A DNA stretch of 64,000 bases from Schmidtea nova. Taxonomy: Eukaryota. Below, one piece after another: positions 1 to 27,867 of this stretch (position 1 is its first letter; each line of letters opens with the position of its first letter). Position numbers and translations under genes: made by a program. Under the pieces are notes generated by a model. The model was not told the DNA's origin. It did not search any database and saw nothing but the letters and a program-made list of their open reading frames with translations. Location: NCBI GenBank assembly GCA_044892505.1, contig CM097884.1, positions 82,088,001 to 82,152,000 on the forward strand, in the 5' to 3' direction.

Positions 1-846
1 TATTGTGTACTTATTTAAAGAAATTTGATATATTGTAATCCATTATGGGAATTATTGATATTAATTATATATATATACCAGTTATTTTTCATTGATATTT
101 TAAAATGACCAACTTATTATCAAATGATAAATTTTAATTTCAAAGGCAAAGGATCTTTATCCATGTCTTTTAAAAGAATTGATATACTGGACCCGTGAAT
201 TATAACATTTTAAATATGGATGTCAACAGGAATAGATCTCAATGTTGTTTTATTGGATTATTTAAAGAAGATTGATCATGAACTAATGATAGATAAATAT
301 CTAAAAGGATAAAATAAAACTGATGACAAAAATGACAAAACTTATAATGAAAATGTCAATAAGGATGGAAATTTCTTAATGGTAAAATACTGAGAATTAT
401 TAAAATGAAACTATAAATGTAAAATATATTGAAAGGTAGGAATTCAGGTGAGAAATTATATTGAAAGAGTTATTTCTTTGGGAAGATATATTCAGATTGG
501 GATATTATAAATGGTAAGTCAAGTAAGATGATGTTAATTCTATGATTGAAAATTTTATTCAGTGATTACTTATAATGGGGAAATTAACAATGAAAAATGA
601 CTTTATTGATGAAATATTTATTTTCAGTTTCTAGCGGGATTTAATCAATTACATTTAAATTACAGGTTTTTATAGATTGTTGTTTTGTCATCTGATTTAG
701 AGAGAATTATTTGTAGTTGATGTTTATTTTTTATATAAAATAATGTATCCAATTTAGTTGTCAATAGTAACCAGTCACCCACTCAAATTCGAGTATTTAT
801 CAAAAGACAATAATATAAATACCACATCTTTGAAAATATAAATCAA

Positions 847-1334
847 ATGTTGTGCAATTTAAATTATAAAGGTAAATGTTTAGTTCCTGGTTTGATATTC
901 CAGGGTGGAAAACCCCAACAATTTTTAGATAGAAGCTGAAAGTATCCCATCATATTTTTCAGATCAGGGAACTGTCGGATAATGGGGTGTAAACAACCGC
1001 TGTTAATTGGAGATTTACCATACAAAATAAAAATATTCAATTACAATCAGTTACCGTAACTGTTGACATTGGATTGAGAATTGATATAAATGAATTGACA
1101 AGAAAACCCAATTGTATTTACGAACCAAAAGTATTCCCCGGTTTGAGAGTGCTGAAATTTAATCCATTATGTGTTAATGTATTAACCAGTGGTAAAATAG
1201 TTATTTTTGGAATAAAATCTTTAGAATATCATGCTTTGGTTGATGAAATTGTAAATTACATAAAATCAATGATCATTGATTCTATATTGATGACAGATGC
1301 AGAATCTTTTGAGTTTTTGCTTGATATTGAATAG
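847..1334 (+). pseudogene. TATA-binding-protein (TBP)-fold gene, disrupted, probably of mobile-element origin
   Basis: Translation MLCNLNYKGK...GKPQQ...*KYPIIFFRSGNCRIMGCK, then a frameshift, then ...CIYEPKVFPGL...CVNVLTSGKIVIFGIKS. The two halves match the TBP repeat motifs (IFxSGK and YEPExFPGL...SGKIVIxG). It has one in-frame TGA and one frameshift. Confidence 0.7.
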
Positions 1335-1938
1335 TTGTTTTATAAAATAAAAATTTCATTACAATTTGTTTATTTTTAATTAGAAATTATATTAGTTTTC
1401 CCGGGACTTTTTATTATTTCAACTTTTATATTCATGTTTAATTATTACTTTCATTGTAACTTTTTATTAAAATAATAATATTGCAATGTAAATATATTCT
1501 AATAAATTGCTTTCTTTTTTAAAACTTATATTTGTAATTCATATTTAATTACTTCTATTATTGTTAAAATAATTTCTATTTAAAATGATATTAATATGTA
1601 TTTAATTTTTTATTAATTGGTTTTACATTTAATTGATTTCTTATTACAATTTCTATTTTTAATTCTTATTTATATATATCTTCTTTAGTTTATTTGTTCG
1701 AAGTAGTAGAAGTGTACTTTATTCCCTGGATTTGTTTAATTACAACTAATTTTTGAAATATTATGCCTTTCTAAAAATAATCCAAAATTAGAAATATGGA
1801 GAAATTATTATTCATGTTTAAGACTTATCGGGAAGTAAAAAAGAAATATGGTAGTGCATGTAATATTAATTATTAAAATCTAAAATTAAGAAATTTTAAT
1901 AAATGTGAAGAAACGTTTGAAGTTATTATTAAAAAATT

Positions 1939-2558
1939 CGGTACTTATGCACATTTCCCCCATTAATTAAAATTGATCAAAAGATTTTAAATAGAAGAAA
2001 ATGAATTGTTCCATAAAAATAAAATAAATAAGAAAACCAAAAAGTGCATAAGTACCGAAAATGTTCTTGACAGACCTTTCTACAAATTAATTTATAAAAA
2101 ACCACTGTGTTTTCTAATCATGTTCCAAGCTCATGCATAATATCATCTTGCTTTTGATATTATTTAGTCCGCATATATAAAAATGTGACTATTTGAATAA
2201 ATGCTAAATGAGAGCCTTCAAATAAAAATCATTTTAAATATTAAATTCGTATCTGTGTGTAGAATTATTGCATCTATAATAAAACCCGTTCTTTTTATCT
2301 GTGGCACTTCTTAAAACTAAAGGATGTCCACATCTACAGTGAGATACCAGCTTGATTATACTCGGATTTAAACAGCATCTCTAAGCATCTTCCTCAGTGA
2401 GAGTATTTATTACTATATCTCTCATAGTATATTTATCTAATGGCTTGTCTATATTTTCCATATTTATAATTTATCCGTAAATAATCCATATTTATTATTT
2501 ATTGATTATTAAAAATTTTTGATTAATTTTAATTATTGATGGTAAAGTGCATAATTAC
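1939..2558 (-). mobile_element. Merlin (IS1016/ISXO2-like) transposon relic with short inverted ends
   Basis: Minus-strand fragments CRCGHPLVLRSATDKKNGFYYRC...EGSHL and ...DDIMHELG...TVV...ICRKVCQ resemble the Merlin transposase N-terminus. CGGTACTTATGCAC at 1939 is inverted at 2044-2057, and a degenerate copy lies near 2546-2558. Confidence 0.5.
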
Positions 2559-2989
2559 CAAATATTCTGTATGAAAACGCTGTTTAGGAAAGACTCTGGT
2601 GTTAGCAAAATTTAAGATACAATAACCCAAATAATACAAAGAAAGGGGAAATCTAATAGTGTTTTTCACACTCTTCATCGCAAAGTAAACATAAACTTTT
2701 AAAGAAAATAATTTGCATTGCCATCTGAAGAAAATTCGAGACAGCAACCACAATCAAACAAAATTTCAGGATATTTGGAACAATCATTCAATTTGGATAC
2801 CGAATCTTTTGGTATTGTATGTTCGAAGTTGTACGTCGTGATGGGTTATCCTTTAGATTTATTGGTACTTTAGAAGTATTACAAAAATCATTGATTTCGA
2901 AAGAATTTATAGTTTTAGAATAATTGGGGAGATTAAGCGAAGAAATTGAACAGTATGTCTTTATAAGAAAAATTACAACTGATTATTAA

Positions 2990-3175
2990 GCAAGAGACGT
3001 ATTGAAATCAGGTAAGTGTGGAATTGTGGAGCCAGAAAAAACTGGTTGAAGGAGAACTTTTTTAGAGAAATGTCTACAATATCTGCTCACTATTTCTCCA
3101 ATCCGTGTAGATTCAGAATGAACCTGTTTTGCTTGCGGTAATAATAAAATTAAGATTAAAACATTAAAAATCAAA
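2990..3175 (+). pseudogene. hAT transposase C-terminal dimerisation-domain fragment
   Basis: Plus-strand translation ...FLEKCLQYLLTISPIRVDSE*TCFACG... aligns by eye with the LMTIKPTSVESERAFSAAG motif of the hAT ORF at 45867. Confidence 0.55.
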
Positions 3176-4389
3176 TATGTAATAATAAATTAATTTTTAA
3201 ATTTCTGTATTATATTTTGTGATATAAATTATTGTTTTCGGTTATTATTAAATAGTCAGTTACTGTCTGACTCCTCGTGTCCTTTCTTTATAAACAAATT
3301 AATAAAACACAACACAGTAATCTTTATTTTCAAATTTCATTACACAATTACAGTTACACACTTATCTGCACACTTCCAGCATTAGGGATAGGTCCTCCAA
3401 TGAGAAATCCCTCTTTCTGGTTAGCAAACAACTGATTTGATCCAAATTTTAACCTTCTGTAAACTTTAAAACTTAGCATTTTTTCTCTTTAGTAAAGATT
3501 TATATAGTTTTTAATTTGTAATTTCGTTCTTCGACCAACAGGAGCGAACACTAAATTCATTTCTTTTTTATATGGTTTCTTTAATTGAATGATTATTCAG
3601 TTTGATTGTATTACTCGTCAGAGGATCTTACTTTATTTTGGTCTAAGCCGAATTAGGTTAGCTTTGTTTGGGATTCCTTTTACCACTCGAGCTTTTTAAT
3701 CTTCCCTGGGTTTGCTGCAAATTAATTTTGTTAGGGGTAATGGGTTTAAGCACTGCTCACCCGGGCTACTTCTAGATCACTCAATTTCTTTTAGCAATTT
3801 TCTCCAGTCAACAAAAAGTAATAGTTTTAATAATAATTTCTTTAATAATTTTTGTCTTTTTTTAATATTTCTTTCTGGGGCCAGTAGTGTATCGGTAAAA
3901 TATTAGGTACCGGAACGCATGGTAATATCTGGGGTGGCGAATCTGATTATCTAAAAAATACATTGCCAAAATCTTTCTTTTTTCTAAATATATTTAATGT
4001 ATAGAGAAAAAATCTTTTTTATGTTGTTTAAAAAAATGATACATTCTTTGCCCTAAAATTAGGCAAAGTTTTACCAGCAATAAAACCGAGTTTCTTATTT
4101 TCTAATCAAGGTCTGTATTTTGATATTTTAACGCTAAGCTTAAAAAAGCCTAAATAAAAGATAGGATCATTACGACTTTAAAAAAATTTTTCTCTATAAT
4201 AAAATATTAGCTAGTCTCAATAAAAACAAAATATAATTTTTTATTCATACTCAGTAAAATATGAAATATTAACAAACACAAAAAAAATTCAAAAAAAGAT
4301 TAGAATAAGATTCTTAAAGATATCATTATTATGTAGTATACTATAAAATTTATAAAATCTCCCAGATAGAATAACAGACAATTTCATTA

Positions 4390-6560: not shown

Positions 6561-7144
6561 GGCGAACCCCTAAAACAGCGATTTCTAAAACATCGATACG
6601 AAAAAATAGATTTCTAAAACATTGACTGTCAAAATCATTGACTGTCAAAGACATCGACAACAATAACATCGAGAACTGATATACCCTAAAACATGACTGT
6701 CAAAAAAATATTGAATACTAGTTTTCCTCTAGTGAGCATTTGACTTACCACGGTAATTAAAATTAAGTTTTATGGAAAACAAAATTTTTCTTTTTCTTTT
6801 CCTTTTCTTATTAAAAAAGCATTGTCAAATATTATCAAAAACATTCATTAAATTAAACACTATTTAAAATAACTAATTATTAATTAATTAATATTCAAAT
6901 TAATATTGATTTAATAATTCTGCCAACCACATATTAAATTAAAACCTAACCTATTAATTAATTAATAACTAGTTATTTTAAATAGTGTTTTATTTAATAA
7001 ATGTTTTTGATAATATTTGATCATGTTTATTGTTTCTGAGACTCGATGTTAATGCTAGTCAATGTTTAGTTTTAAAAATTCGATTTTTTAGCAATCTATG
7101 TTTTAAAAGTCGATGTTTTAGTACTCGTACAAGGAGGGCGGCTG
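6561..7144. mobile_element. Foldback MULE-like non-autonomous element
   Basis: The 9-bp direct repeat AGTCCAAAT flanks it (6552-6560, 7145-7153). TAAAACATCGA motif arrays are inverted at the two ends, and a ~68-bp internal inverted repeat (6826-6893 / 6953-7021) surrounds AACCTAACCT. The terminal match is imperfect. Confidence 0.5.
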
Positions 7145-7660: not shown

Positions 7661-10565
7661 CAAGGATGCTTTCCCAAAATTAATCAACCGGTTCGCAGTG
7701 ATATTTTCTTACAAATTTTTCTATTTTTTTAATATTAATATTTCCATCAAAATATTATGGTTTGTCAGAGTAGCAGACTAAGTCAAGAATATTTAACTAT
7801 CGTTCATATTCTTTTAAACAATAATGTAATAGGATAAAAGAGAATAAAAAAATAATTCAACGAGGTGAAAATCACTTTTATTTTATTTATTCATTTCAAG
7901 AGATACAAAATTTACATTAAAAAAACTGAACATAACAAAAAATTGTGAAATTTCATATATTAGTAAATATTATTGTTATAAAGTAATTATATTATTTAAA
8001 ATATTTCCAAATAGCTAATTGATTTTCAGTATATTCTTTCGGTTTAGATTTTTTAACCCTGGTGTCATCTGCCGAGTTATGGTTCCTCAACCAAGTTTTT
8101 ACATAGGGAACTGCGTTCCAAGTTTTCAATGGACAACCAACTAAATTTAATGTCATCAAATTTGATATTGTCTGCACTGTTAATCTGGCTCTTATATCAG
8201 TAATTATGATGTTCATCAATGAAAATCCTCGTTCTGCTTCAGTACTGCTAACGGCAACCGTATTAACCATATTTTTCGCTTTTTGAATGTTTTCTGCAAT
8301 TTTACTAATTTGCTGATGGCCGTTGTTTATTATATTTTCTACATAATCACGGAAATCATTCTTATCGATATCAAAATTAAAAACTTTTCGAAATTTATCA
8401 AAATTCTCTTCGGCCTATATCCACGGAACTACAATATCTTCAATTTTCCATGTGCTCGGCTCTAGCAAATTGGCTAGCTCATAAATAATGCATTTATCAA
8501 TATTTTTTTTGTTACTATTTGATCCGAGATGACAGCAATCCATCAATCTTAATTTCATATTTTTTATGATGCTGTCAATAAGGGAATCTCTGGGAAGGTT
8601 TCCATAAATTCTGTTTTCGACGAAGATAATGTTTTTGAATGCTTCAGAGTTTATAACTTCATCCACATTTTTTTCGTAATGACCGCGACGATCTTTGAGA
8701 ATTTGAAAAGCGTTAATTGTTCTTCTAATCAGTTGATCTCCCTTTGCAACATTTATATTTCTAGCTTGAAGGGCATTAGATAGTAGAGAGCACTCCTGTA
8801 GGATGTCAATCATTAGAGCTAAATCTACTAGAAAACATTTGTTTTGTAGTCGTTTTGCCATTCCAGACATTTTTTGGTTAGAAGAGAACAACGTATACAA
8901 AGCAGGGTAGCTCCGCCATACAGCACGCAGCCCATCATGGTCCTAACACTCTTCCAATCTTAATTATATCCAAACTAAGCTCCTGGGAAATATTATTCAG
9001 TTCTTTTTGGTTTTTATTAGATTGATGAAAAATACAATATATTTTGTCCATGAAAAGTTTAAAATGATTAACCTGTTTGATATCGTTTATGGAATCATCT
9101 AAAACAAGTTGTAGACGGTGATTGAGACAGTGCCAAATAATAACATTTGGAAACATCTCTTTTATTCGTACGCTGACTCCAGATTTACAACCGAGCATTA
9201 CGCTAGCACTGCCAGAACAGAATCCTATTAAATTCAGTTTTAAATAATTTGTATCAAATCCAACAGCAAGAAATACACCCAACAAACTTTGAAAAATAGT
9301 ATTCGCATCTTGTGCGTCAAGTTCCACAATATCTACGAACATTATTGGGGATATTTCAGAAGATTCTACTTTGATGAAAACTATAAGCGTTGATTTACTG
9401 GAAATGGTGGAAGCTTCATCAATAACAGTACAAATTTTTAAATTATTCTTAATAATTGATATAAACAATTCTTTTTTAGTTTCTTGCGCGATATGCTCTA
9501 CTATCTTACTTGCACTATGTCGAGAATGAAGTCCGGTTCCCATGTCCAACCCGTATTTTACTTGAAGCTCTATTACACTTTCTATGTCTGAAAACGGACG
9601 GTTTCCTTTCGCTAGACTGTAAACAGTGTTGAAGATTCTTGTAGTAGAACTAATAAATTTCTCGGTCATCTTATCGATGCATGATGTAAAAGTTTGTTTT
9701 TCAAGTATCTTGGCATGTTCATCATCTAGTTTGTGTGCTTTTGATCCAAAATGTTCACTCGTTATTTCCCTCAAAGATGCTTGTTGCACTATTTTGTCTT
9801 TACCCGATGTCGTAACTTTACATTTTTTCCATTCCTGAGATATTAGTTTTGATTCCATTTTTAAACAATACTTACATCCCAATTTCTGATTACTGACAAA
9901 TAGCCCATCATATTTAATTTTAAACTCCTTCAACTGTTTCGCATTCCAACAGCTTGGTAAATTATTATTGTCCTCATTTTGGTAACTAGGAATCTCTAGT
10001 ATTTGTTCCTGCAAAGTTATTGAAACTGCTTCTATCTCTGTTATAGTCGACCTGCTATCATTATTTACTGATGTTTCCTCTCTTATTTTTTCGAGAAATA
10101 TGTGGTTAACATATTTTGTCTCTTCATCTTCAAAAAATAAAATATGTATTTAAAAATAAATTATTTAACTTAAAACATGAAAATAGTTAATTGAACTTAC
10201 CTTACAAAACAAATAATAACTGACAAAATGAAATATTTAGATTAAACTTTTTCAATAGAAATTTCAAATAGATTTAACTTTTACATATATACCTATCTAT
10301 GGTAACTTGATAAAATTTAAAAAATTTTTTATTTTTTTTAAAATTAACTGAAAGATTTCTATAAAGTAAAAAATTAGAATCGCAATGAAAGATAGATAAA
10401 ATTTTCAAATTGTTTATATAAATTTGCACCAAGTGGTAAATAAATTTTATTTAAATAATTTATTTTTTGCGTATTTTTTTTGCCAAAGTAAATAATTTAT
10501 TTTTTTCGCTTATTTTAATAGCCGGTTCGCACGAACCGGTGCGAACCGATAGGAAAGCATCCCTG
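7661..10565 (-). mobile_element. hAT DNA transposon (KIAA1586/ZNF862-like), near full length
   Basis: TIRs are CAAGGATGCTTTCC / GGAAAGCATCCCTG, the 8-bp TSD GATGGATG is perfect (7653-7660, 10566-10573), and it contains an internal transposase. Confidence 0.9.
7992..10130 (-). pseudogene. hAT transposase, KIAA1586/ZNF862-like, broken into three ORFs
   Basis: ORFs 8935-10014 (IDEAST, WHCLNHRLQL), 8415-8900 and 7992-8270 (VSSTEAERGFSLMN...ADDTRVKK) are separated by stops or frameshifts. A probable 5' intron lies near 10130-10200. Confidence 0.85.
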
Positions 10566-11950: not shown

Positions 11951-13251
11951 TATTCTATCCTTTGAAACCCCTTATGTGCAGCTCCTTCATGTGTAAATTA
12001 AAAATTTGTGCTCATTTAAAATTTGAACCCTCTAACCATATTGCGGAGCTAATAAGCCCTGCACATACGGAATTACCCTCACAACTTTCACCACAGAGGA
12101 CGCCCCTCTGCAGTTTAGAAAGTTTAAAAATAATGAATGAATGATTTTATAAAATTTTCATGGCAATAAAAACATGATAGCAACACAAAATCATACTACA
12201 TTCGACAAAGTAAAATTTACCTAAAGTAATCCGTGAAAGTCTATGATTCGATAAACTGACAAAGTCAAGATCGGTTAAATCGCTTGAGCTTTGAAACTAA
12301 TCGGTAATATTCTGATTCTTATGGTTTTGGACTTCAGTATTTATACTGATCTGGTTTGCTAATAGGGCCAATCAGAATCGTTCTACCGCTCAAATTAAGT
12401 TGGTTTTTTATTTATTTGGTAAAAATTTGATAGAGGTTTCAGATAGTGTCTTGTGGATCAACGTCTACTTAATGAATTAATAAAAAAAGTACTTTTATTT
12501 TACCTAATTATCTTAAATTTGTTTTAATCGATTCTAGATACTCTGTATCTCTTGGGTATTACTGCTACTTCTACATTAAATTCTTGAAATGATAATTTTT
12601 CTTTAATCATTTTTCACTATTATTATCTAATTAACAGCTTTAGCCGACTCTGTGAGGCTATTTTAGGGTATTTTTCTATTATTTAAAAATTAAAGAGACA
12701 AAGAAATATTTACTGTTAAAAGAGTCATAGAAAAATAAATCTAAGTCACGTTTTACAAAATTTAAATAGCATCTCTTGTTAACAAAACAGTTATATCGAA
12801 GGTATTTTGAATATTATTTTCATTTGATTGTGACATAATTTGTTTCATTTGGATTTCTGAATCTGGACAATCTTTGTGATTCCTCTGGAAATGAGTAATA
12901 ACAAATTCACCATTTTTTTCAATAAAATCTTTATGAATGTAGAATTCATTATTTTGGAATGCGTTATCAGCTGAAAAATGTAATTATTAAATTACGGAAC
13001 TCAGTTTAAACAGTAAATATATATTTATCAAGTAGCCAATCGGGAAACGGTGAATAAATATTTTGTTGAATTAGAAGTCAAGTATTGTCCGGCCGTAAAG
13101 ATGCACAATCCATACAATAAATGGCAGAGATAAAATGTGTAATAAATCCCTATTGTAGTGCTGAACATAGTGACGTATTATGAAATTAGGAGCCTCTGTG
13201 ATTAGAATTATAAGGAGCCTTACATTTTTTTCATATTTCTTATTTACAAAA

Positions 13252-13442
13252 AGTAGTAGGATGTGTCCCCGTCAGATCAGTTACCCCCCCCCCCCAAATT
13301 TTTTAAAGTTACATAACACCGGACACTTGACCATAACATCACTCGTCCGTGACCAGCACACTTGTGCAAAGACACACTTATGGCACGTGTTTCCAATGGC
13401 AACTACTACTTTTAGAATTTTTTGTATCATCCTCACGTGCCC
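13252..13442 (+). repeat. Left terminal inverted repeat (191 bp)
   Basis: It is the reverse complement of 27459-27648, with about 5 substitutions and a 12 C versus 11 G homopolymer difference. Confidence 0.9.
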
Positions 13443-13558
13443 GGCACGATTATTAACCATTGCATCATCCGCGCGTGCCCGCCATGATTATTGACCAGCA
13501 CACTTATGGGTAGTAACCGGCACACTTAGTGACCAACACACCATCAGGTAATCACTAC

Positions 13559-13682
13559 CCGCCAACCGCCAACCGCCAACAACCAACCGCCAACTGCCCA
13601 CCGCCGACCGCCGACCGCCGACCACCAACCGCCATCCTCCATCCGCCATCCGCCAACCGCCAACCGCCATCCGCCAACCGCC
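13559..13682 (+). repeat. (CCGCCAA)n heptamer tract, left
   Basis: Degenerate tandem CCGCCAA/CCGCCAT/CCGCCGA units. Confidence 0.9.
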
Positions 13683-14084
13683 CACTGCGCTCCGCTGCGC
13701 TCAACTGCGATCCATTAAACTTTCGAAAATCTATATTAGTATTATAATTATATAGTTTTCAAGTTATATAAATGCAAGATTTCTCATAAGGATTCAGATT
13801 CGTAATGCTTTCATGAAGTCCATAAAAGTTTAAAGATATAACATATATTTTTATTCTTAATTCATGCCATTATTTAGAAAATATGTAATCAACTATCTTA
13901 ATGGTAAAAAAATAATCCGGAATGGTCTTTATATAAAAATATACAAGTTTATACAATCTGTTTACTAACTACTTTATCAGTAGTATTTGATAATTTTATT
14001 TAAATTAATCAAATTTATTTTTTAATTAATTTATCTTTATTTCTATATTAGTCAATTATGGTCCGATTTTTATGAAAACTTGTA

Positions 14085-14545
14085 TACATATCAAATTCAA
14101 TATGCTGAATCCGAATTTGTTACAAAAAATAGGAAAAAAAATTAGTCCAAAGTGAGAGTTGAACCTGGGCCTCTCACATATAAAAAAATTTTAAATGATT
14201 TTTCTCGACTAATACTTGTCAGATTTGAACCAAAATTTCTATTTACATCAAATTCAATATGCTGAATCCGAATTTGTTAAAAAAAATAGGAAAAAAAATT
14301 AGTCCAAAGTGGGAGTTGAACCTGGGCCTCTCACATATAAAAAGATTTTAATTGATTTTCTCGACTAATACTTGTGAGATTTTAACCAAAATTTCTATTT
14401 ATATCAAATTCAATACGCTGAATCCGATTCCTTAACAAAATTTTCATAAAAACGGCCAAAGAAAAAATTATTCAACCTTGAGAGTTAAAACTGGGGTCTC
14501 ACAATTAGAAATCCATAGCCTTTCCAACTAAGCTACATTCCACAC
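14085..14545 (-). repeat. ~157-bp tandem repeat (about 3 units) headed by a degenerate tRNA-like sequence, left arm
   Basis: TCAAATTCAA recurs at 14091, 14248 and 14404. The minus strand reads TAGCTTAGTTGGAAAGGC (A-box/D-arm) and GGTTCAACTC (B-box/T-arm). Confidence 0.7.
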
Positions 14546-14599
14546 TTTTAATAAACAAAATTTTAGCATATATTTGATTTTTCTAATCTTTACATAGGT

Positions 14600-14601
<2 letters not shown>

Positions 14602-14667
<66 letters not shown>
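14602..14667. repeat. (AAT)22 microsatellite, mirrored as (ATT)22 at 26061-26126
   Basis: Read directly from the sequence. Confidence 0.95.
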
Positions 14668-14671
<4 letters not shown>

Positions 14672-14783
14672 TACACAAATAAAACTTGACACAAAATAAA
14701 AAAAAAAAGACATTTTCAAATAACAAAATTTATTTCAATAACAATTTTCATTCTGGAAATATCGACATTAAGAACTAGTCATC

Positions 14784-15154
14784 TCAGTCGTTCAATGTAT
14801 TGACTCCTAAATAATGCCCGAATGCAAAACTTTCATTTTTACCCACCCACTGACGCTTATCATCGTTGTTACTTAAAGCAATTTTAGTATTCTTAAAAGT
14901 ATACAATTGATGATTTTGCTTCCCAATTCGAGTTTGAGGAACAGAAAAGATTTGATTATTATTGTAGCAATCAAGATAAGAAAGATGTTTTATCTCAGTT
15001 CCTTCTAAATATACTCCCTTCGCTTTATTACTTTCAGATTCACCCAAAAGACTGTAGCACTTCGGACTTAAGAAAACCCATTCATTGGATCCAAGTCCAA
15101 ATTTGCCAATGACTGAGTCAGGATTTCTTGAATACAATGGATGTTCAGGAATAA
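14784..15154 (-). pseudogene. Protein-primed DNA polymerase B (pPolB) C-terminal fragment, left arm
   Basis: Translation EHPLYSRNPDSVIGKF...LSPKCYS...KAKGV...TKIALSNNDDKRQW...FGHY carries the Polinton pPolB C-terminal motifs KxY, KxKG and DDKR...GH. It is 5'-truncated, with only about the last 125 aa. Confidence 0.85.
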
Positions 15155-17263
15155 CCTATATAGTTTTAATAATAACAATAGTAATATTAATACTTGAAAC
15201 CAATCAAAATGAAACTTGACACATAAAAAAGTCAAATTTCTTTTTTAAAAAACTTGATTTACAAATTTTTTTTCCATTCTTCATCCATACCAGATTTGGT
15301 AAAACAATATGATATAAGTAACTGAATTTGTAGTGATTAGTTGACAACTAGTTAAAAAGTTTCAAAATCTATATATATTGCACAAAACCCTTATTAGCGC
15401 AATAATTAACAAGTTTTGAAGCTAAAGCATGAAAATCAATCCAAATTAGTTAAGTTATCAAAATATTTTAAATATTTCTGTTATTATATATTTATTATAG
15501 AAAAGACATGTTAGTTGATATCAGTTGATAATAGTTAAAAATTAACTAATAATACGTGGTAATCATTATTTTTACAAGTTCTCAATGAAAGTAGTAAACA
15601 ATGATTTAATTATAATTGTAAAAATACTAAGAGAAATTCCTAAGAAAAGTGACTCTCAAAAGTAATTTAAATATCATCTTCAAAAATTTATTAACAAAAA
15701 TTTAGTTTCAAAACTTTTACTCACAAAAATTTAGTTTCAAAAATTTATTCACAGAATTTAGATTCAAAAAATTATTCACAAATTTTAGTTTTAAATTTAT
15801 CCACAGTATTTAGATTAAAATCTATTTTTTACCCAGTTTTTGTTCACTAACCAGTTAGTAACCCATTAATTATTGATAAAATATATACTAATTTGATTTA
15901 TATTTAAAGTTAATTTCGTAATATTTTAAATTAATATATATCATTTGAATACAATTTTAAAAATTACTTTGACTTAAATTAACTTTTGAAACTTAGAATA
16001 AATTTTAGTAAACAAATCTAAATTTTTTCAATTAAAATTGATTTTTTTTCCAAATTGAATTTTGTCGGGAAAATATAGTTAGTTACACAATCAATTTTAT
16101 ACTAATTAATTAAAACTTATTTAAAATTGATGTCTTGAAGATTGGCTACATTAATGAGTTCCAAAATCATTTCAAAATGATACCAGGATATTTATGAATT
16201 TATTTGCAATTATTTATTTTACTAAAAGCAAAAATTATTATCATTTATTTGAAAATATGCGGATTTTTAAATTGAAACTTAAATAAAATTTTAATTGTTG
16301 GCTAATTAAAAGTAATTTTTATAGGTTTAAAATTAATCTAAAATTAAAATAATAATCGATTGATCAATGTACAAAATTTTATATTACTTAGTCAGCAACT
16401 TTAACAATTGAATAATCTTTTAAATAAATTAGACAACTGAATTTTTAAATAAGACGAAAAGAAAAAGAATAATAGAAATTTCTATATGCTTTAATTTCAA
16501 AATTGTAATGCTTAATTTTCAAATATTTTGGTTAATAAAGTATTTATTTTGAACCAAAACTAGTAGTTAGAATACTAAAGTTTACTTTATTATAACATTT
16601 AAAATGAAAAACAAATCAATTTACTCATTATCAATTAGTTACTAATTATTAATAAATTCGATAATAATTTAATACACGTTAAAATTAATTTAAATAGATC
16701 TTTTTAAGAATTGATTTCATTAGATTTCAAAAATTTTTAGAATAAATTTTAAAATATTTTTAATAAAAGAACTAAATGCAATAAACTCGATTGATTGACA
16801 ACCATTGACAACAAACTCATTTGTGCAATAAGATGTTTTGTCAGCGTATTTATTATCACTAGGTTATGAAACCATTAATGAATGCTGTTTTTATGTATTG
16901 ATTGAAGAAAACATGTAATAAAAACTAAAATCAACCAATTAAATTATCCAAATTCGCTCCAGTGTGTACATTATTTGTATAACATGTGGTATTTTTATAC
17001 TGATATTTTCCTATCGATTTGAATACAATTACTATACATTGCTACAAAAATCACTAAATTTCGGTATTAAACTGATATAACTCAAATTGAGGCTCCATTT
17101 TAAAATTACTTGCACCTTTTTAATTGATATTCATCATAAAACCTATTTAATTATCGATTTAACCGTTATAATGTATTATACCTCCATATTTCTTAGTATT
17201 CTCAAAAGTATAACACAATTTATCACGTAATTATATAAAATCAGTATTGATAAATTTTAAATA

Positions 17264-17760
17264 AAATAGCTACAAACTTCTTAGTTCAATAAAACTTACT
17301 CAAATATGTCGTTAACTTTGAAATAACTCTTAAGAAACCGCATAAAATCACCAAATTAAACGTGAAAATTTTATCAAATCTTATTACTCTTGATATTATT
17401 AATATCTTTACTAAATTATCACATGATCCATCATTGAAAATTACATTATTATTCTGCTAAATTAAAATACCAGTAAATTAATTAAATTGTTAATAAAAAT
17501 TGTTAATAACAAAACACAATTTATGAAATAGCTACAAACTTCTTAGTTCAATAAAACTTACTCAAATATGTCATTAATTCTGAAATAACACTTAAGAAAC
17601 TGCATAAAATCCCCAATTAAAACGTGAAAATTTTATCAAATCTTATTAATCTTGATATTATTAATATCTTTACTAAATTATCACATGATCCATCATTGAA
17701 AATTACATTATTATTCTGGTATATATTAAAAAATCATTAAATTAATTGTTAATAAAAAGC
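17264..17760. repeat. ~262-bp tandem duplication inside the arm (mirrored at about 22969-23465)
   Basis: AAATAGCTACAAACTTCTTAGTTC occurs at 17264 and 17526. The two units are diverged from each other but are the same in both arms. Confidence 0.85.
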
Positions 17761-19380
17761 TATGTAGTCATATATATTTTAAAATCCCATAAAAATGACC
17801 AAATATCATTCAAATCATGACAAAAAGCTATTTTGTCATATATAATTTAAAATCACATTAAAATCACAACAAATCATCCAAAACTCAATATTCAAGTCAT
17901 TATAACTGATACTGACTATGCTTAGTGGCTTTGAGTTTCAAATTTTACCATAAAGTAATCAATAAATAATCCTAAAATTTGATATAATCTGAATTAAAAG
18001 TTTCGACCATTTAATTAACAAAGAATATTGAATTAACACAAAATTATTTACGTTAAGACATTTCAAATTATCAACATTACTTGATATAAATCCTTAACTT
18101 CATTGAATTTCCATAAAATCAATTAATTACATAAATCACCTGTTAAAATTTATTTTACATCTAAATTCTTTCAATTATCTTCATAAATTTTCCACAATTC
18201 ACTTAAAAATTGTAATGAAATTACTTTGGAAGTTATTTGAATTTTTATTAGTTTGCTATAAAATTATTATAATCACTGTAATAATCGAAAATATTTATAA
18301 TCACTGTAATAATCTAAATTTTAGTCATAACCTTTGATTAAATTGACATTAATTTCAATCTTAAATATATTTTAAATTTAATGAAATCAATAATTTGCAT
18401 AAAATATTAATTGAGAGAAAATAAGTTGGAAATTTTAAAAAGAAATTTGAAATACAATCAATGTGTATTTCTAAAATATTAATTATCTTTGAATTTAATT
18501 AGAATAAATTGTATTTAATTTTAGCAAATATTTAGTTTATTTCGAAAAAAGTATTTGAATTATTGCCAAATAAAAAGTCATGGTAACTAAATATAATTAT
18601 AATATTATGATTTTAATTTAGAATTAATTAATTTGCATGATGATTTCTGAATTTAATTTTAATGTAGAATTAAATACTGGTCATTTATATTTTGTGAAGA
18701 AATTCCTATTACTAATTTTAAAAAATCAAAGTTATTTTAAAAAGTTTCAAATAATACACATTAAAATCTATATAAATAGTATATAAGTGAATATACAATA
18801 TGAATCTTTTACAGGTAAAAACCATCACAAAAGAGGTTCTGCTACCAAAGGTTCTGTTAGAAAGGTTCTGATACTAAGGATATATTAGAAAAGTTCTGAT
18901 ACTGAATATAATTGTTAATAATGAATTTTACCAAAATATTTATTGATTTTTCATTTTAAATATTTTCAGTGAATTATTAATATTAATAATTTTTATTATT
19001 ACCACGTAATAATTTTGTAACATTAAATCTGTTTCGATTGTTTTTTATGATATTTATAAAAGTTGATATAATATGAAAAATTTATTCACAAAGGGCAGTT
19101 TATGTATGTGATGCAGTTATCTGTTTGTGTATAGTAACTTTTCATTGAATTGTGTCAGTTTTTATCATAATTCGATGCATTACATTATTTTTTGATATAA
19201 TCTGTCTATTAAAAGATTTTGCATAAATAATTAATTATCATATTAAAATAAAGTGTGTATCTGCACACAAAAATATCAATAAATAAAAATTAATAAAAAT
19301 GTTAAACGAAATCTGATTGGTCAATTTAAATTATGAAAACATATATATAAATTGATTAAAAATTACAGATTTCATTAAAA

Positions 19381-19921
19381 ATGTATCAACTTAAAAGTAA
19401 GTTTAAATAATTTTAAATGATTATTTTTAATATTTTATTCTAGAATCTTCGAACAAAAAGATGTTGAAACAAGAAGTAATGAAAATTATTCTTGAAGAAA
19501 ATTCTATTTCGGCATCAAATTTGGTTAGGAATCCTGCAGTTCAATTTCTACAATACTCGATGGAATATTTAAAATTTCCAATAATTTATTCATTTAAAGT
19601 ATATATTTATTTAATTAAAATAAATTTCTAATAATTATTTTATAGGAACCTGTTACATTGAAACAATGCATGTATAATCTTCAAGTGGGGAAAATTGGAG
19701 ATATTGATAGACGAAATATTTCAGAAATTTTGTTAGCAATCAACAAAGAAATACAATTTAATGAAGCTTTTACGTATATGAATTGCATTAAAGATTGTAA
19801 TTTGAAAAATCCCGATGAAAATTCAATATATTAAATTAAGATAATGATTCAAGGCTTCAAAGAATCTAATGATGTTGTCAAACCTGTTTGGAAAATTATA
19901 GAAACAAATATATGTGAATAA
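19381..19921 (+). CDS. Spliced orphan gene (3 exons): 119 aa, or 148 aa if the in-frame TAA is a lesion; left arm
   Basis: Exons 19381-19396, 19444-19598 and 19646-19834 are joined in frame by two 47-nt GT-AG introns. The product is MYQLKKSSNKKMLKQEVMKIILEENS...NPDENSIY*. The frame stays open for 28 more codons to a TAA overlapping AATAAA at 19919-19921. Confidence 0.65.
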
Positions 19922-20751
19922 AATTTATTTATCAAATCTTATCTTTTCATTTCATTTTATTTTATTTTATTTTATTGTTTGTTTTGGTTAATTTAAATTT
20001 TTAATAAAAATTATTTTTTGTGTTAAATTTATTACCAAATATTTAAAATCGATTAATTTTTTATTAAAATAAAAATAATTAATTTTTTATTTTATTTTAT
20101 TTTTTGTTTTGGTTAATTTAAATTTTTAATAACAATTATTTTTTGTTTTAAATTTATTACCAAATATTTAAAATCGATTAGTTTTTTATTAAATAAAAAT
20201 AATTAATTTTATTATCATAATTAATCTAAATTGATTTTGTTTTAATAATTGATTATACGTTTAAAATTAAAATTCAAATTAATTTTCTTTAATATTTCCC
20301 GGCAACAATAATTAATTCGGAATTTGATATATATTCGAATATATATCAAATTCCGAATTAATTATTGTTGCCGGGAAATATTAAAGAAAATTAATTTGAA
20401 TTTTAATTTTAAACGTATAATCAATTATTAAAACAAAATCAATTTAGATTAATTATGATAATAAAATTAATTATTTTTATTTAATAAAAAACTAATCGAT
20501 TTTAAATATTTGGTAATAAATTTAAAACAAAAAATAATTGTTATTAAAAATTTAAATTAACCAAAACAAAAAATAAAATAAAATAAAAAATTAATTATTT
20601 TTATTTTAATAAAAAATTAATCGATTTTAAATATTTGGTAATAAATTTAACACAAAAAATAATTTTTATTAAAAATTTAAATTAACCAAAACAAACAATA
20701 AAATAAAATAAAATAAAATGAAATGAAAAGATAAGATTTGATAAATAAATT

Positions 20752-21292
20752 TTATTCACATATATTTGTTTCTATAATTTTCCAAACAGGTTTGACAACA
20801 TCATTAGATTCTTTGAAGCCTTGAATCATTATCTTAATTTAATATATTGAATTTTCATCGGGATTTTTCAAATTACAATCTTTAATGCAATTCATATACG
20901 TAAAAGCTTCATTAAATTGTATTTCTTTGTTGATTGCTAACAAAATTTCTGAAATATTTCGTCTATCAATATCTCCAATTTTCCCCACTTGAAGATTATA
21001 CATGCATTGTTTCAATGTAACAGGTTCCTATAAAATAATTATTAGAAATTTATTTTAATTAAATAAATATATACTTTAAATGAATAAATTATTGGAAATT
21101 TTAAATATTCCATCGAGTATTGTAGAAATTGAACTGCAGGATTCCTAACCAAATTTGATGCCGAAATAGAATTTTCTTCAAGAATAATTTTCATTACTTC
21201 TTGTTTCAACATCTTTTTGTTCGAAGATTCTAGAATAAAATATTAAAAATAATCATTTAAAATTATTTAAACTTACTTTTAAGTTGATACAT
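20752..21292 (-). CDS. Mirror copy of the spliced orphan gene, right arm
   Basis: It is the reverse complement of 19381-19921, with the ATG at 21290-21292. Confidence 0.65.
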
Positions 21293-24200
21293 TTTTAATG
21301 AAATCTGTAATTTTTAATCAATTTATATATATGTTTTCATAATTTAAATTGACCAATCAGATTTCGTTTAACATTTTTATTAATTTTTATTTATTGATAT
21401 TTTTGTGTGCAGATACACACTTTATTTTAATATGATAATTAATTATTTATGCAAAATATATGATAATTAATTATTTATGCAAAATATATGATAATTAATT
21501 ATTTATGCAAAATCTTTTAATAGACAGATTATATCAAAAAATAATGTAATGCATCGAATTATGATAAAAACTGACACAATTCAATGAAAAGTTACTATAC
21601 ACAAACAGATAACTGCATCACATACATAAACTGCCCTTTGTGAATAAATTTTTCATATTATATCAACTTTTATAAATATCATAAAAAACAATCGAAACAG
21701 ATTTAATGTTACAAAATTATTACGTGGTAATAATAAAAATTATTAATATTAATAATTCACTGAAAATATTTAAAATGAAAAATCAATAAATATTTTGGTA
21801 AAATTCATTATTAACAATTATATTCAGTATCAGAACTTTTCTAATATATCCTTAGTATCAGAACCTTTCTAACAGAACCTTTGGTAGCAGAACCTCTTTT
21901 GTGATGGTTTTTACCTGTAAAAGATTCATATTGTATATTCACTTATATACTATTTATATAGATTTTAATGTGTATTATTTGAAACTTTTTAAAATAACTT
22001 TGATTTTTTAAAATTAGTAATAGGAATTTCTTCACAAAATATAAATGACCAGTATTTAATTCTACATTAAAATTAAATTCAGAAATCATCATGCAAATTA
22101 ATTAATTCTAAATTAAAATCATAATATTATAATTATATTTAGTTACCATGACTTTTTATTTGGCAATAATTCAAATACTTTTTTCGAAATAAACTAAATA
22201 TTTGCTAAAATTAAATACAATTTATTCTAATTAAATTCAAAGATAATTAATATTTTAGAAATACACATTGATTGTATTTCAAATTTCTTTTTAAAATTTC
22301 CAACTTATTTTCTCTCAATTAATATTTTATGCAAATTATTGATTTCATTAAATTTAAAATATATTTAAGATTGAAATTAATGTCAATTTAATCAAAGGTT
22401 ATGACTAAAATTTAGATTATTACAGTGATTATAAATATTTTCGATTATTACAGTGATTATAATAATTTTATAGCAAACTAATAAAAATTCAAATAACTTC
22501 CAAAGTAATTTCATTACAATTTTTAAGTGAATTGTGGAAAATTTATGAAGATAATTGAAAGAATTTAGATGTAAAATAAATTTTAACAGGTGATTTATGT
22601 AATTAATTGATTTTATGGAAATTCAATGAAGTTAAGGATTTATATCAAGTAATGTTGATAATTTGAAATGTCTTAACGTAAATAATTTTGTGTTAATTCA
22701 ATATTCTTTGTTAATTAAATGGTCGAAACTTTTAATTCAGATTATATCAAATTTTAGGATTATTTATTGATTACTTTATGGTAAAATTTGAAACTCAAAG
22801 CCACTAAGCATAGTCAGTATCAGTTATAATGACTTGAATATTGAGTTTTGGATGATTTGTTGTGATTTTAATGTGATTTTAAATTATATATGACAAAATA
22901 GCTTTTTGTCATGATTTGAATGATATTTGGTCATTTTTATGGGATTTTAAAATATATATGACTACATAGCTTTTTATTAACAATTAATTTAATGATTTTT
23001 TAATATATACCAGAATAATAATGTAATTTTCAATGATGGATCATGTGATAATTTAGTAAAGATATTAATAATATCAAGATTAATAAGATTTGATAAAATT
23101 TTCACGTTTTAATTGGGGATTTTATGCAGTTTCTTAAGTGTTATTTCAGAATTAATGACATATTTGAGTAAGTTTTATTGAACTAAGAAGTTTGTAGCTA
23201 TTTCATAAATTGTGTTTTGTTATTAACAATTTTTATTAACAATTTAATTAATTTACTGGTATTTTAATTTAGCAGAATAATAATGTAATTTTCAATGATG
23301 GATCATGTGATAATTTAGTAAAGATATTAATAATATCAAGAGTAATAAGATTTGATAAAATTTTCACGTTTAATTTGGTGATTTTATGCGGTTTCTTAAG
23401 AGTTATTTCAAAGTTAACGACATATTTGAGTAAGTTTTATTGAACTAAGAAGTTTGTAGCTATTTTATTTAAAATTTATCAATACTGATTTTATATAATT
23501 ACGTGATAAATTGTGTTATACTTTTGAGAATACTAAGAAATATGGAGGTATAATACATTATAACGGTTAAATCGATAATTAAATAGGTTTTATGATGAAT
23601 ATCAATTAAAAAGGTGCAAGTAATTTTAAAATGGAGCCTCAATTTGAGTTATATCAGTTTAATACCGAAATTTAGTGATTTTTGTAGCAATGTATAGTAA
23701 TTGTATTCAAATCGATAGGAAAATATCAGTATAAAAATACCACATGTTATACAAATAATGTACACACTGGAGCGAATTTGGATAATTTAATTGGTTGATT
23801 TTAGTTTTTATTACATGTTTTCTTCAATCAATACATAAAAACAGCATTCATTAATGGTTTCATAACCTAGTGATAATAAATACGCTGACAAAACATCTTA
23901 TTGCACAAATGAGTTTGTTGTCAATGGTTGTCAATCAATCGAGTTTATTGCATTTAGTTCTTTTATTAAAAATATTTTAAAATTTATTCTAAAAATTTTT
24001 GAAATCTAATGAAATCAATTCTTAAAAAGATCTATTTAAATTAATTTTAACGTGTATTAAATTATTATCGAATTTATTAATAATTAGTAACTAATTGATA
24101 ATGAGTAAATTGATTTGTTTTTCATTTTAAATGTTATAATAAAGTAAACTTTAGTATTCTAACTACTAGTTTTGGTTCAAAATAAATACTTTATTAACCA

Positions 24201-25574
24201 AAATATTTGAAAATTAAGCATTACAATTTTGAAATTAAAGCATATAGAAATTTCTATTATTCTTTTTCTTTTCGTCTTATTTAAAAATTCAGTTGTCTAA
24301 TTTATTTAAAAGATTATTCAATTGTTAAAGTTGCTGACTAAGTAATATAAAATTTTGTACATTGATCAATCGATTATTATTTTAATTTTAGATTAATTTT
24401 AAACCTATAAAAATTACTTTTAATTAGCCAACAATTAAAATTTTATTTAAGTTTCAATTTAAAAATCCGCATATTTTCAAATAAATGATAATAATTTTTG
24501 CTTTTAGTAAAATAAATAATTGCAAATAAATTCATAAATATCCTGGTATCATTTTGAAATGATTTTGGAACTCATTAATGTAGCCAATCTTCAAGACATC
24601 AATTTTAAATAAGTTTTAATTAATTAGTATAAAATTGATTGTGTAACTAACTATATTTTCCCGACAAAATTCAATTTGGAAAAAAAATCAATTTTAATTG
24701 AAAAAATTTAGATTTGTTTACTAAAATTTATTCTAAGTTTCAAAAGTTAATTTAAGTCAAAGTAATTTTTAAAATTGTATTCAAATGATATATATTAATT
24801 TAAAATATTACGAAATTAACTTTAAATATAAATCAAATTAGTATATATTTTATCAATAATTAATGGGTTACTAACTGGTTAGTGAACAAAAACTGGGTAA
24901 AAAATAGATTTTAATCTAAATACTGTGGATAAATTTAAAACTAAAATTTGTGAATAATTTTTTGAATCTAAATTCTGTGAATAAATTTTTGAAACTAAAT
25001 TTTTGTGAGTAAAAGTTTTGAAACTAAATTTTTGTTAATAAATTTTTGAAGATGATATTTAAATTACTTTTGAGAGTCACTTTTCTTAGGAATTTCTCTT
25101 AGTATTTTTACAATTATAATTAAATCATTGTTTACTACTTTCATTGAGAACTTGTAAAAATAATGATTACCACGTATTATTAGTTAATTTTTAACTATTA
25201 TCAACTGATATCAACTAACATGTCTTTTCTATAATAAATATATAATAACAGAAATATTTAAAATATTTTGATAACTTAACTAATTTGGATTGATTTTCAT
25301 GCTTTAGCTTCAAAACTTGTTAATTATTGCGCTAATAAGGGTTTTGTGCAATATATATAGATTTTGAAACTTTTTAACTAGTTGTCAACTAATCACTACA
25401 AATTCAGTTACTTATATCATATTGTTTTACCAAATCTGGTATGGATGAAGAATGGAAAAAAAATTTGTAAATCAAGTTTTTTAAAAAAGAAATTTGACTT
25501 TTTTATGTGTCAAGTTTCATTTTGATTGGTTTCAAGTATTAATATTACTATTGTTATTATTAAAACTATATAGG

Positions 25575-25945
25575 TTATTCCTGAACATCCATTGTATTCA
25601 AGAAATCCTGACTCAGTCATTGGCAAATTTGGACTTGGATCCAATGAATGGGTTTTCTTAAGTCCGAAGTGCTACAGTCTTTTGGGTGAATCTGAAAGTA
25701 ATAAAGCGAAGGGAGTATATTTAGAAGGAACTGAGATAAAACATCTTTCTTATCTTGATTGCTACAATAATAATCAAATCTTTTCTGTTCCTCAAACTCA
25801 AATTGGGAAGCAAAATCATCAATTGTATACTTTTAAGAATACTAAAATTGCTTTAAGTAACAACGATGATAAGCGTCAGTGGGTGGGTAAAAATGAAAGT
25901 TTTGCATTCGGGCATTATTTAGGAGTCAATACATTGAACGACTGA
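25575..25945 (+). pseudogene. pPolB C-terminal fragment, right arm
   Basis: Mirror copy that differs by one codon (QTQIG versus QTRIG). Confidence 0.85.
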
Positions 25946-26056
25946 GATGACTAGTTCTTAATGTCGATATTTCCAGAATGAAAATTGTTATTGAAATAAA
26001 TTTTGTTATTTGAAAATGTCTTTTTTTTTTATTTTGTGTCAAGTTTTATTTGTGTA

Positions 26057-26128
<72 letters not shown>

Positions 26129-26182
26129 ACCTATGTAAAGATTAGAAAAATCAAATATATGCTAAAATTTTGTTTATTAAAA

Positions 26183-26643
26183 GTGTGGAATGTAGCTTAG
26201 TTGGAAAGGCTATGGATTTCTAATTGTGAGACCACAGTTTTAACTCTCAAGGTTGAATAATTTTTTCTTTGGCCGTTTTTATGAAAATTTTGTTAAGGAA
26301 TCGGATTCAGCGTATTGAATTTGATATAAATAGAAATTTTGGTTAAAATCTCACAAGTATTAGTCGAGAAAATCAATTAAAATTTTTTTATATGTGAGAG
26401 GCCCAGGTTCAACTCCCACTTTGGACTAATTTTTTTTCCTATTTTTTTTAACAAATTCGGATTCAGCATATTGAATTTGATGTAAATAGAAATTTTGGTT
26501 CAAATCTGACAAGTATTAGTCGAGAAAAATCATTTAAAATTTTTTTATATGTGAGAGGCCCAGGTTCAACTCTCACTTTGGACTAATTTTTTTTCCTATT
26601 TTTTGTAACAAATTCGGATTCAGCATATTGAATTTGATATGTA
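26183..26643 (+). repeat. Mirror copy of the tRNA-like / 157-bp repeat, right arm
   Basis: It is the reverse complement of 14085-14545 with about 2 substitutions. Confidence 0.7.
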
Positions 26644-27043
26644 TACAAGTTTTCATAAAAATCGGACCATAATTGACTAATATAGAAATAAAGATAAATT
26701 AATTAAAAAATAAATTTGATTAATTTAAATAAAATTATCAAATACTACTGATAAAGTAGTTAGTAAACAGATTGTATAAACTTGTATATTTTTATATAAA
26801 GACCATTCCGGATTATTTTTTTACCATTAAGATAGTTGATTACATATTTTCTAAATAATGGCATGAATTAAGAATAAAAATATATGTTATATCTTTAAAC
26901 TTTTATGGACTTCATGAAAGCATTACGAATCTGAATCCTTATGAGAAATCTTGCATTTATATAACTTGAAAACTATATAATTATAATACTAATATAGATT
27001 TTCGAAAGTTTAATGGATCGCAGTTGAGCGCAGCGGAGCGCAG

Positions 27044-27187
27044 TGGGCGGTTGGCGGATGGCGGTTGGCGGTTGGCGGTTGGCGGTTGGCGGTTGGCGGT
27101 TGGCGGTTGGCGGTTGGCGGATGGCGGTTGGCGGTTGGCGGTTGGCGGATGGCGGATGGCGGATGGAGGATGGCGGTTGGTGGTCGG
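27044..27187 (+). repeat. (GGCGGTT)n heptamer tract, right
   Basis: Tandem GGCGGTT/GGCGGAT units; the copy number differs from the left tract. Confidence 0.9.
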
Positions 27188-27458
27188 ATTTTTGGTCTGG
27201 TATTTTTGAATAGGATTTTTGGTCTGGTATTTTTGAATAGGATTTTTGGTCTGGTATTTTTGAATAGGATTTTTGGTCTGGTTATTTTGAATAGAGAATT
27301 TTGGGTCGATCTTTTGTATAGGAAATTTTTGTCGGTCTTTTTGTATAGGATTTTCTATTCCGAGATTTTTCTCGGCCAAAAAGGGACGCTGGTATTTTTG
27401 TACATGGAATTTTGGTCTGGTATTTTTGTATAGGATTTTGGTCTGGTTATTTTGAACA
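27188..27458 (+). repeat. Right-end-specific ~29-bp tandem repeat (GGATTTTTGGTCTGGTATTTTTGAATA..)
   Basis: Several near-identical copies are followed by degenerate ones. It has no counterpart in the left end, where 13443-13558 is a different sequence. Confidence 0.85.

Positions 27459-27818: not shown

Positions 27819-27823
<5 letters not shown>

Positions 27824-27864: not shown

Positions 27865-27867
<3 letters not shown>

Follow-up and report, generated by a model that had tools for sequence, protein, structure and literature searches.

How can a mobile element come to carry old ends around a young interior? The question is raised by a 64,000-nucleotide stretch of AT-rich eukaryotic DNA (the window; 27% GC by base counts), in which comparison of the sequence with itself finds a dominant inverted repeat from about 13.6 to 27.2 kb, enclosed by another inverted pair (13252-13442 and 27459-27648). 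Together these form a relic derived from a Polinton/Maverick element (13252-27648; 14,397 bp), and a single palindrome makes up 94% of it (13,570 of 14,397 bp; Table 1). In our best model, to which we give roughly an even chance, this is a dead Polinton whose terminal inverted repeats (TIRs) grew inward through host repair up to the point where both halves meet, leaving a repair scar without a function of its own.

The two outer ends belong to one insertion. Mavericks are characterized by (AGT)2//(ACT)2 or (AG)3//(CT)3 end motifs and a 6-bp target-site duplication (TSD), according to the available text of PMC8097293, and the relic begins with AGTAGT and ends with ACTACT between two copies of the same hexamer, a match with a chance of about 0.001. 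Because of these ends and the 6-bp TSD, we conclude that a Polinton-type element integrated here as a single unit. Its outer TIRs (190 and 191 bp) are 97% alike, and its length falls within the Polinton range of about 13-25 kb, yet half of that length is duplication. For vertebrates, the available text of the same survey gives 12.7-24.6 kb for intact Mavericks, a mean TIR length of 402 bp, and a degraded state for 96% of genomic copies (PMC8097293). The TIR has no special fold (z=-0.1). Self-comparison finds no second copy of the element within the 64-kb window, and a 27-base TIR pattern has no match in a contig collection that holds no eukaryotic genomes. An alignment search for the Polinton polymerase pPolB gives 15 pattern matches and one confirmed locus (L001), a broken pPolB beside GC-rich DNA, without long inverted ends and without a match to the ends of the element. 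The pPolB of L001 lies in a stretch of 32-39% GC (1-3400) with which a bacterial MAG contig begins; the remainder of that contig exceeds 60% GC, and it may be chimeric or the stretch may be eukaryotic contamination.

Table 1. Parts of the Polinton-derived relic and its target site, in window coordinates.
Feature	Position	Strand	Remarks
Left target-site duplication, ACAAAA	13246-13251		hexamer matches right side
Left outer TIR	13252-13442	+	191 bp; starts AGTAGT (Maverick end motif)
Left-only block with TIR-type motifs	13443-13558	+	116 bp; shared 7-mers
Outer heptamer units, left side only	13559-13617	+	about 59 bp without right counterpart
Shared inner heptamer tract and end of GC-rich terminal region	13618-13700	+	putative inner edge of original TIR of about 450 bp
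Left palindrome arm	13618-20336	+	6,719 bp
157-bp tandem repeat	14088-14427		units 4.5% apart; mirrored at 26301-26640; holds arm difference 14344
(TAA)22	14601-14666		equal length in right arm (26062-26127)
pPolB remnant, last 115 or so codons only	14784-15155	-	homology 14808-15149; lacks five residues present in 11/11 relatives
AT-rich host-like filler	15156-20336		8-26% GC per 250-bp window; old tandem duplications; 78-bp match to left-flank repeat
Exon-like stretches, in frame via a 47-bp GT-AG intron-like segment (19599-19645)	19431-19921	+	internal stop in the second; as read from sequence
Palindrome centre, no spacer	20331-20342		axis between 20336 and 20337; 1,121 perfect bp each side
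Right arm, inverted copy of left arm	20337-27187	-	6,851 bp
28-bp unit, three identical copies	21430-21513		one copy in left arm
Mirror pPolB remnant	25574-25945	+	same five-residue gap; Q where relatives have R (10/11) or K (1/11)
Right heptamer tract	27046-27187	-	first units rare and shared with inner left tract; 11 units more than there
Right-only block, array of about ten units (26-27 bp), interrupted by 58 bp	27188-27458		271 bp; unrelated to TIR
Right outer TIR	27459-27648	-	190 bp; ends ACTACT (27643-27648)
Right target-site duplication, ACAAAA	27649-27654		hexamer matches left side

Nearly all genes of the inserted element are gone, and each arm consists of a short pPolB tail and host-like DNA. 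The pPolB frame has 11 relatives among 195 candidates, at 41-69% identity (5 of the 11 are listed with PF03175), and, used as tblastn queries, all 11 recover just the C-terminal 115 or so residues, once per arm. This homology shows ancestry from a pPolB-bearing Polinton, although only about 10% of the polymerase remains. A retroviral-like integrase is absent from the open reading frames, none of which exceeds 123 codons in the left half, and from Pfam matches to short frames (0 of 45). Genes for the packaging ATPase, the protease, and the major and minor capsid proteins are likewise absent from the ORF listing and from the same 45 frames, a result that decayed remnants could escape. The 45 frames are those of at least 32 codons in 13690-19400, 49 in all, less three (TAA)n frames and the pPolB frame, which had already been scanned; Pfam is weak for such remnants and misses the true pPolB tail as well. 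Near the inner end of the arm, the exon-like stretches at 19431-19921, mirrored in the right arm, look like the captured 3' end of a host gene, and both are negative in Pfam (2 of 2).

The state of this DNA bears on the order of events. Tandem units of 157, 262, 125, and 68 bp within the arm are 4.5, 6.4, 8.8, and 16% apart, and a 78-bp piece of the arm (16406-16481) is 77% identical to a repeat in the left flank (6782-6854; E=1e-5). Since these diverged tandem duplicates and the five-residue gap in pPolB are mirrored almost exactly in the other arm, decay and capture of host-like DNA would have preceded the duplication, or else were converted across from arm to arm. The left-flank repeat itself (6814-7031) is a MITE-like inverted repeat. 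By eye, the 157-bp repeat had seemed tRNA-like; we rejected this reading, with no ARAGORN gene in the window and no Rfam match at E<=1 in 13000-28000.

The surrounding DNA holds other repeats and gene fragments. A broken transposase in three frames lies at 7992-10149 on the minus strand; it has no clear Pfam match, and we take it to be hAT-like. A second broken transposase (44080-46124, plus strand) is assigned by Pfam to hAT elements through a BED finger and a dimerisation domain; its ends may be marked by short repeats (43643-43715) and an inverted pair (46230-46361). A TBP-domain exon lies at 993-1334 (plus strand), and 830-1273 is 72-76% alike to 38007-38324, perhaps a second TBP-like copy. 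A 289-codon frame on the minus strand (58534-59403) carries a bromodomain and a KIAA2026 helical domain in Pfam, with no match to longer proteins among 774 candidates. Two pieces of a dispersed repeat are 95-97% alike between 28402-28736, where they are adjacent, and 60904-61784, where they lie about 550 bp apart. At 42232-43031, 222-bp direct repeats (98.6%) flank a GC-rich, low-complexity open frame (42408-42938), either a recent duplication or an assembly echo.

Between the TIRs and the arms, the two ends of the element differ. The first-pass annotation placed a 116-bp block on the left and a 271-bp block on the right and put the end of arm homology at 27187, inside the heptamer tract, and our alignments agree on all three; its repeat unit of 29 bp for the right block is really 26-27 bp. 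In total, the segment found only on the left is 175 bp long (13443-13617), including the 59 bp or so of heptamer units that are missing on the right, and the right heptamer tract in turn is longer by 11 units (77 bp) within the portion common to both ends, in a pattern beyond what one tandem duplication can give. The left block resembles the TIR beside it: it shares 14 7-mers with the first 170 TIR bases (1.3 in shuffles, with 0 of 5,000 shuffles reaching 14), and a 38-bp tandem (13422-13497) spans the boundary between them. The right block shares no 7-mer with either the TIR or the left block, a plain zero count on which we rely, the shuffle null for this block (mean 3.8) being rough in that it does not preserve the repeat structure. 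GC content separates the blocks in the same way (32% in the right block, 46-49% in the TIR and left block). On the left, the whole terminal region stays at 40-74% GC up to about 13700 and then drops from 74% to 24%. Judged from this composition and the shared motifs, the original TIR was probably the whole GC-rich left end of about 450 bp, made up of the 190-bp outer part, the left block, and the heptamer tract.

The right block is then probably a later patch rather than an original Polinton subterminal region, because it shares no 7-mers, has 32% GC, and meets its neighbors at both junctions in the same phase of the 27-bp unit with a 2-bp CC microhomology. The junctions on their own are only suggestive of a patch: toward the TIR, 3 of 27 phases would offer such a match, and toward the arm 35 of 123 positions would. 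The middle units of the block are clearly diverged from one another, and it is possible that the right-end array is native to the element. The claim that both original ends survive can accordingly be kept for the outer ends, which share a TSD and one insertion, and is doubtful for the patch-like right block. Within the right block, the region of the 58-bp interruption (27330-27400) can form a stem that bears a pair of small hairpins (z=-4.1; of 200 shuffles one does as well, for a region chosen after seeing it), and its inverted bits are copies of adjacent array sequence, resembling the snap-back patches of end-joining repair.

The contrast between old ends and young interior is a matter of counts. 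The left and right TIRs differ by 5 substitutions over 190 sites (13335, 13347, 13359, 13413, and 13433) and by one base in a poly-C length. The arms differ by 3 substitutions over 6,661 sites (14344, 14494, and 14929), by one base of poly-A (14698), and by a 28-bp unit present once on the left and three times on the right (after 19215); two aligners agree on these arm differences. The first-pass counts, about five differences between the TIRs and a handful between the arms, are thus borne out, as is the statement that the TIRs are the more diverged: divergence per region is not uniform but stands at 2.6% in the TIRs versus 0.045% in the arms, a difference of about 58-fold (Fisher p=8e-7; p=3e-4 on G/C sites only), and at the TIR rate about 175 arm substitutions would be expected where 3 are observed. 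The arms are much younger than the TIRs, or more homogenised. The absolute age is another matter, and 2.6% is an unsafe clock, as the TIRs may already have differed at insertion. All five TIR substitutions lie beyond the first 83 bp (13252-13334; p=0.057), which may reflect constraint or chance.

Within the arms, the differences lie toward the outside. The outer 1.25 kb or so differs at 3 of 1,254 sites (0.24%) and the inner arm at 0 of 5,407 (Fisher p=0.007, at a split picked after the data were seen), and the poly-A change too falls in the outer part. A run test that is free of any chosen position also finds clustering, both for the three substitutions (p=0.027) and with the poly-A change (p=0.007) or all five differences (p=0.034) included. 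Compared with the outer arm only, the TIRs are 11-fold more diverged (p=0.0015, just p=0.04 on G/C sites). The locus therefore has three levels of divergence: 5/190 in the TIRs, 3/1,254 in the outer arm, and 0/5,407 in the inner arm. The first-pass annotation proposed that the interior was replaced by copy-back of one arm or is homogenised by conversion, and a young interior fits this; a single one-off copy-back does not predict that arm differences cluster at the outer ends, so a second round, conversion, or assembly consensus is needed in addition. Its further suggestion, that the event was resolved in the shared heptamer tract, is compatible with the sequence, which does not prove it.

Changes can also be assigned to one side or the other. 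At 14929 the right arm is derived, with Q where 10 of 11 pPolB relatives have R and one has K, and at 14344 the left arm is probably derived, the neighboring 157-bp unit having the right-arm base. Among the TIR differences, sister motifs in the left block suggest that the right TIR is derived at 13359 and the left at 13433. Because both arms carry derived states and the heptamer difference takes several steps, two physical copies exist, at least at the outer end. That the assembler looped twice through one real arm, an artefact the annotation had allowed for, is unlikely; we reject it given the TSD, the two different junctions, and derived states on both sides.

A less sweeping assembly error fits the sequence well, and the centre is our main doubt. 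The palindrome lacks a spacer, and such a structure of this size is expected to be short-lived because in mice a 15.4-kb perfect palindrome was rearranged in about 35% of offspring (available text of PMC8701086) and because all 21 sequenced human fold-back junctions have a spacer, of at least 766 bp (available text of PMC3907307). This also tells against our repair model: a spacer-less palindrome should not last, yet the arms carry three substitutions. The inverted repeat could instead be real over at least the outer 1.3 kb or so, with an interior or centre made by the assembly, through a consensus pasted twice, a hairpin short cut at a short palindrome that dropped a spacer or the right interior, or both; amplification chimeras could be the source of such a hairpin junction. 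The window has four N gaps between 31175 and 50255 (364, 129, 156, and 218 bases, one pair enclosing 119 bp), and gaps this uneven look like those of a short-read scaffold, though they could be masks. In a short-read scaffold, the interior of such a repeat is unphaseable, and assembly consensus in the interior or a dropped spacer is quite possible.

The spacing of the arm variants agrees with this: they cease at the point that chain phasing begun at the unique ends would reach (680, 149, 203, and 230 bp, then 4,285 bp). In simulations that apply the outer variant rate to the whole arm, 52% of runs with 700-bp fragments lose phase within 1.5 kb; with 3-kb fragments, only 1% of runs give the pattern. 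The equal length of (TAA)22 in both arms points the same way, as does the zero spacer, unstable in vivo, and amplified libraries are known to yield false inverted duplications (available text of PMC6218980). On the other side, an assembly error cannot remove the TSD, the junction of right block and heptamer tract, or the arm-specific derived changes, and the arms differ in the 28-bp unit as little as 1.1 kb from the centre, a difference that could also be produced by two alleles or an unpopped bubble. Overall, we consider an interior or centre made by the assembly less likely than repair, though the strongest rival to it; a milder effect, in which interior differences were lost, can coexist with the repair model. 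The 119-bp piece between two N gaps holds a 77-bp hairpin (49961-50037), and an (AT)23 tract at 27820-27865, about 170 bp past the right end of the element, is a perfect 46-bp palindrome that the assembly runs straight through. The motif TTCGAA at the axis might suggest a restriction-ligation artefact, but we dropped this reading, since every perfect palindrome is self-complementary at its centre.

Under the repair model, events could have run as follows. A Polinton-type element integrated as a unit; its TIR would have been the whole GC-rich end of about 450 bp. Its genes would have decayed before any duplication, while the outer TIRs drifted to 2.6% and the right TIR lost 175 bp to a 271-bp minisatellite patch. 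Later, the interior would have broken, been resected, and been repaired within the chromatid by intramolecular gap repair: the inner right TIR, sharing its strand sequence with the left, would have served as primer on the left half, which was copied inward. The two single-stranded ends could then have closed at a short self-complementary motif, removing the old right interior and leaving no spacer. Seeds for such a closure are common, since the 48.7 kb of window sequence not belonging to the element hold perfect palindromes of at least 14 bp at 27 places; taken by itself, the left half of the centre has no special fold (z=0.2). The extra identity of the inner 5.4 kb may come from a second, younger round of extension, from centre-out repair, or from assembly consensus. 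With stepwise rounds, layers would become younger from the outside in, matching the observed gradient. In this sequence of events, the integration, the gene loss, and the levels of divergence are shown by the data; what we infer from them is how long the original TIR was, the later patch, and the route of repair.

Three other readings were weighed as well. The first places the copy-back before integration: a Polinton derivative folded back into a snap-back genome of about normal length, gained its second end by recombination, and was inserted in trans by a helper integrase, so that the 14.4-kb unit would be an integrated, defective Polinton genome carrying host DNA, and the TIR differences would reflect two parent ends, not age. 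Copy-back products of protein-primed polymerases are known from phi29 work, a perfect TSD surrounds the whole unit, and 14.4 kb lies within the range of intact vertebrate Mavericks (12.7-24.6 kb). Symmetric snap-back genomes are, moreover, a main defective class in AAV (available text of PMC8235507). In its plain form, this route gives identical ends, and here the ends differ by 2.6% and a block, so that at least two further switches would be needed. An arm that is mostly decayed host-like DNA suggests long chromosomal residence, and copy-back does not predict the outer-to-inner gradient; we judge this origin improbable.

Marginally less probable again is a symmetric palindrome as old as the insertion itself, kept alike by arm-to-arm conversion, with the right patch having cut the outer 190 bp off from that conversion, which would leave this outer part alone to reveal the real age. 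The TIR-like left block and foreign right block fit such a history, the gradient runs in the direction of centre-out conversion, and nematode inverted repeats are alike within species while diverging between species (available text of PMC1803023). Those nematode repeats have spacers of 126-414 bp in the same text (PMC1803023), whereas here a spacer-less 13.6-kb palindrome must outlast 2.6% of TIR divergence against its measured instability, and every arm deletion and tandem duplication must have been converted across.

The least probable of the readings we weighed is a join of inversion isomers: one allele would carry its interior in flipped orientation between its heptamer tracts, and at a short internal palindrome a crossover, or a switch by the assembler, would have linked one allele's left half to the other's right half, making the arm differences allelic. 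Zero spacer, two different ends, and few, repeat-dominated arm differences would follow in one step. A right heptamer tract native to the element, which this join requires, is possible, as the first 33 bp of that tract equal the left exactly, which is unremarkable at 2.6% divergence (p=0.11 for no substitution in 85 bp). It also requires a flipped allele, and neither the allele nor a native right tract is seen here; the clustering of substitutions would be unexplained unless heterozygosity is patchy.

Weighing these readings against the repair model, the difference in divergence between TIRs and arms is real and the picture of old ends around a young interior is sound, with the right block doubtful as an original part. 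If the repair model is right, TIR extension, as in Galileo and in butterfly polintons with 2-kb TIRs, ran to completion in a Polinton, and three age layers (2.6%, 0.24%, and 0%) can be read in one locus. The palindrome would then be a natural test case for the germ-line lifetime of spacer-less, multi-kilobase palindromes, and a warning against dating Polinton insertions by the identity of their TIRs or arms. Should the centre stem from the assembly, the locus usefully illustrates how a real inverted repeat can give rise to a false perfect palindrome. Neither of these readings alters the view of how Polintons work; only the improbable copy-back origin would, as fossil evidence in a genome of defective-interfering replication by elements for which no virions have been seen, and as a route to long double-stranded RNA against the Polinton family.

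Among known systems, the element is closest by descent to Polintons. It shares with Mavericks, as the available text of PMC8097293 describes them, the (AGT)2//(ACT)2 ends, the 6-bp TSD, the TIRs, the pPolB homology, and a length within 12.7-24.6 kb, and it differs in the loss of all but about a tenth of pPolB, in having no integrase, ATPase, protease, or capsid genes that we found, in being 94% palindrome, and in its unlike end blocks. Judged from sequence homology, it descends from a Polinton and is not an intact member. Butterfly polintons likewise carry internal genes duplicated in long inverted ends, with TIRs of about 2 kb, but in the available text of that study they are full-length and recently mobile and have a unique interior, and the element here is a relic without one (10.1101/2025.02.07.637071). 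The palindromes of Halocafeteria elements are a different thing, 52 nt long and terminal (available text of 10.64898/2026.07.28.741278). A Polinton palindromic over its whole length is not described in the literature searched by title and abstract opening, which is weak evidence of absence, with most subscription papers, Repbase-type entries, and supplements outside that scope.

Inverted duplications in other systems match parts of the structure. The snap-back genomes of AAV are self-complementary molecules made from one genome moiety, symmetric or asymmetric, but as the available text presents them they are extrachromosomal, have both ends from the same moiety, and are remade in each infection (PMC8235507), whereas this DNA is chromosomal and decayed and its ends differ at 5 of 190 sites and by the 175/271-bp block. 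Human fold-back inverted duplications resemble it in setting an inverted duplication beside a deletion, with short microhomology at the junction; they differ, in the available text, in the spacers of all 21 junctions, in their megabase scale, and in a usually dicentric intermediate (PMC3907307), where here the event lies within one element.

The nearest match in process is Galileo of Drosophila, whose TIRs take up internal sequence, a process attributed to repair from the opposite end, as we propose here (available text of PMC3573991 and PMC4168063). In non-autonomous Galileo copies, sequence beside one TIR, such as gene ends and nested repeats, reappears inverted beside the other, and tandem repeats within the TIRs expand; the expansion of inverted repeats in Polintons is itself said, in the available text of PMC3573991, to have been reported already. 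Long, internally repetitive TIRs with recruited internal sequence, the mark of Galileo and Foldback elements, are present at this locus, and the P-superfamily transposase and 7-8-bp TSD of Galileo are replaced by a pPolB remnant and a TSD of 6 bp. In the parts of the Galileo papers available, total TIR length reaches about 1.3 kb, compared with 6.7 kb here, and stepped divergence and a spacer-less centre are not described. The element is no Galileo, but its palindrome may represent this kind of TIR extension carried to its limit.
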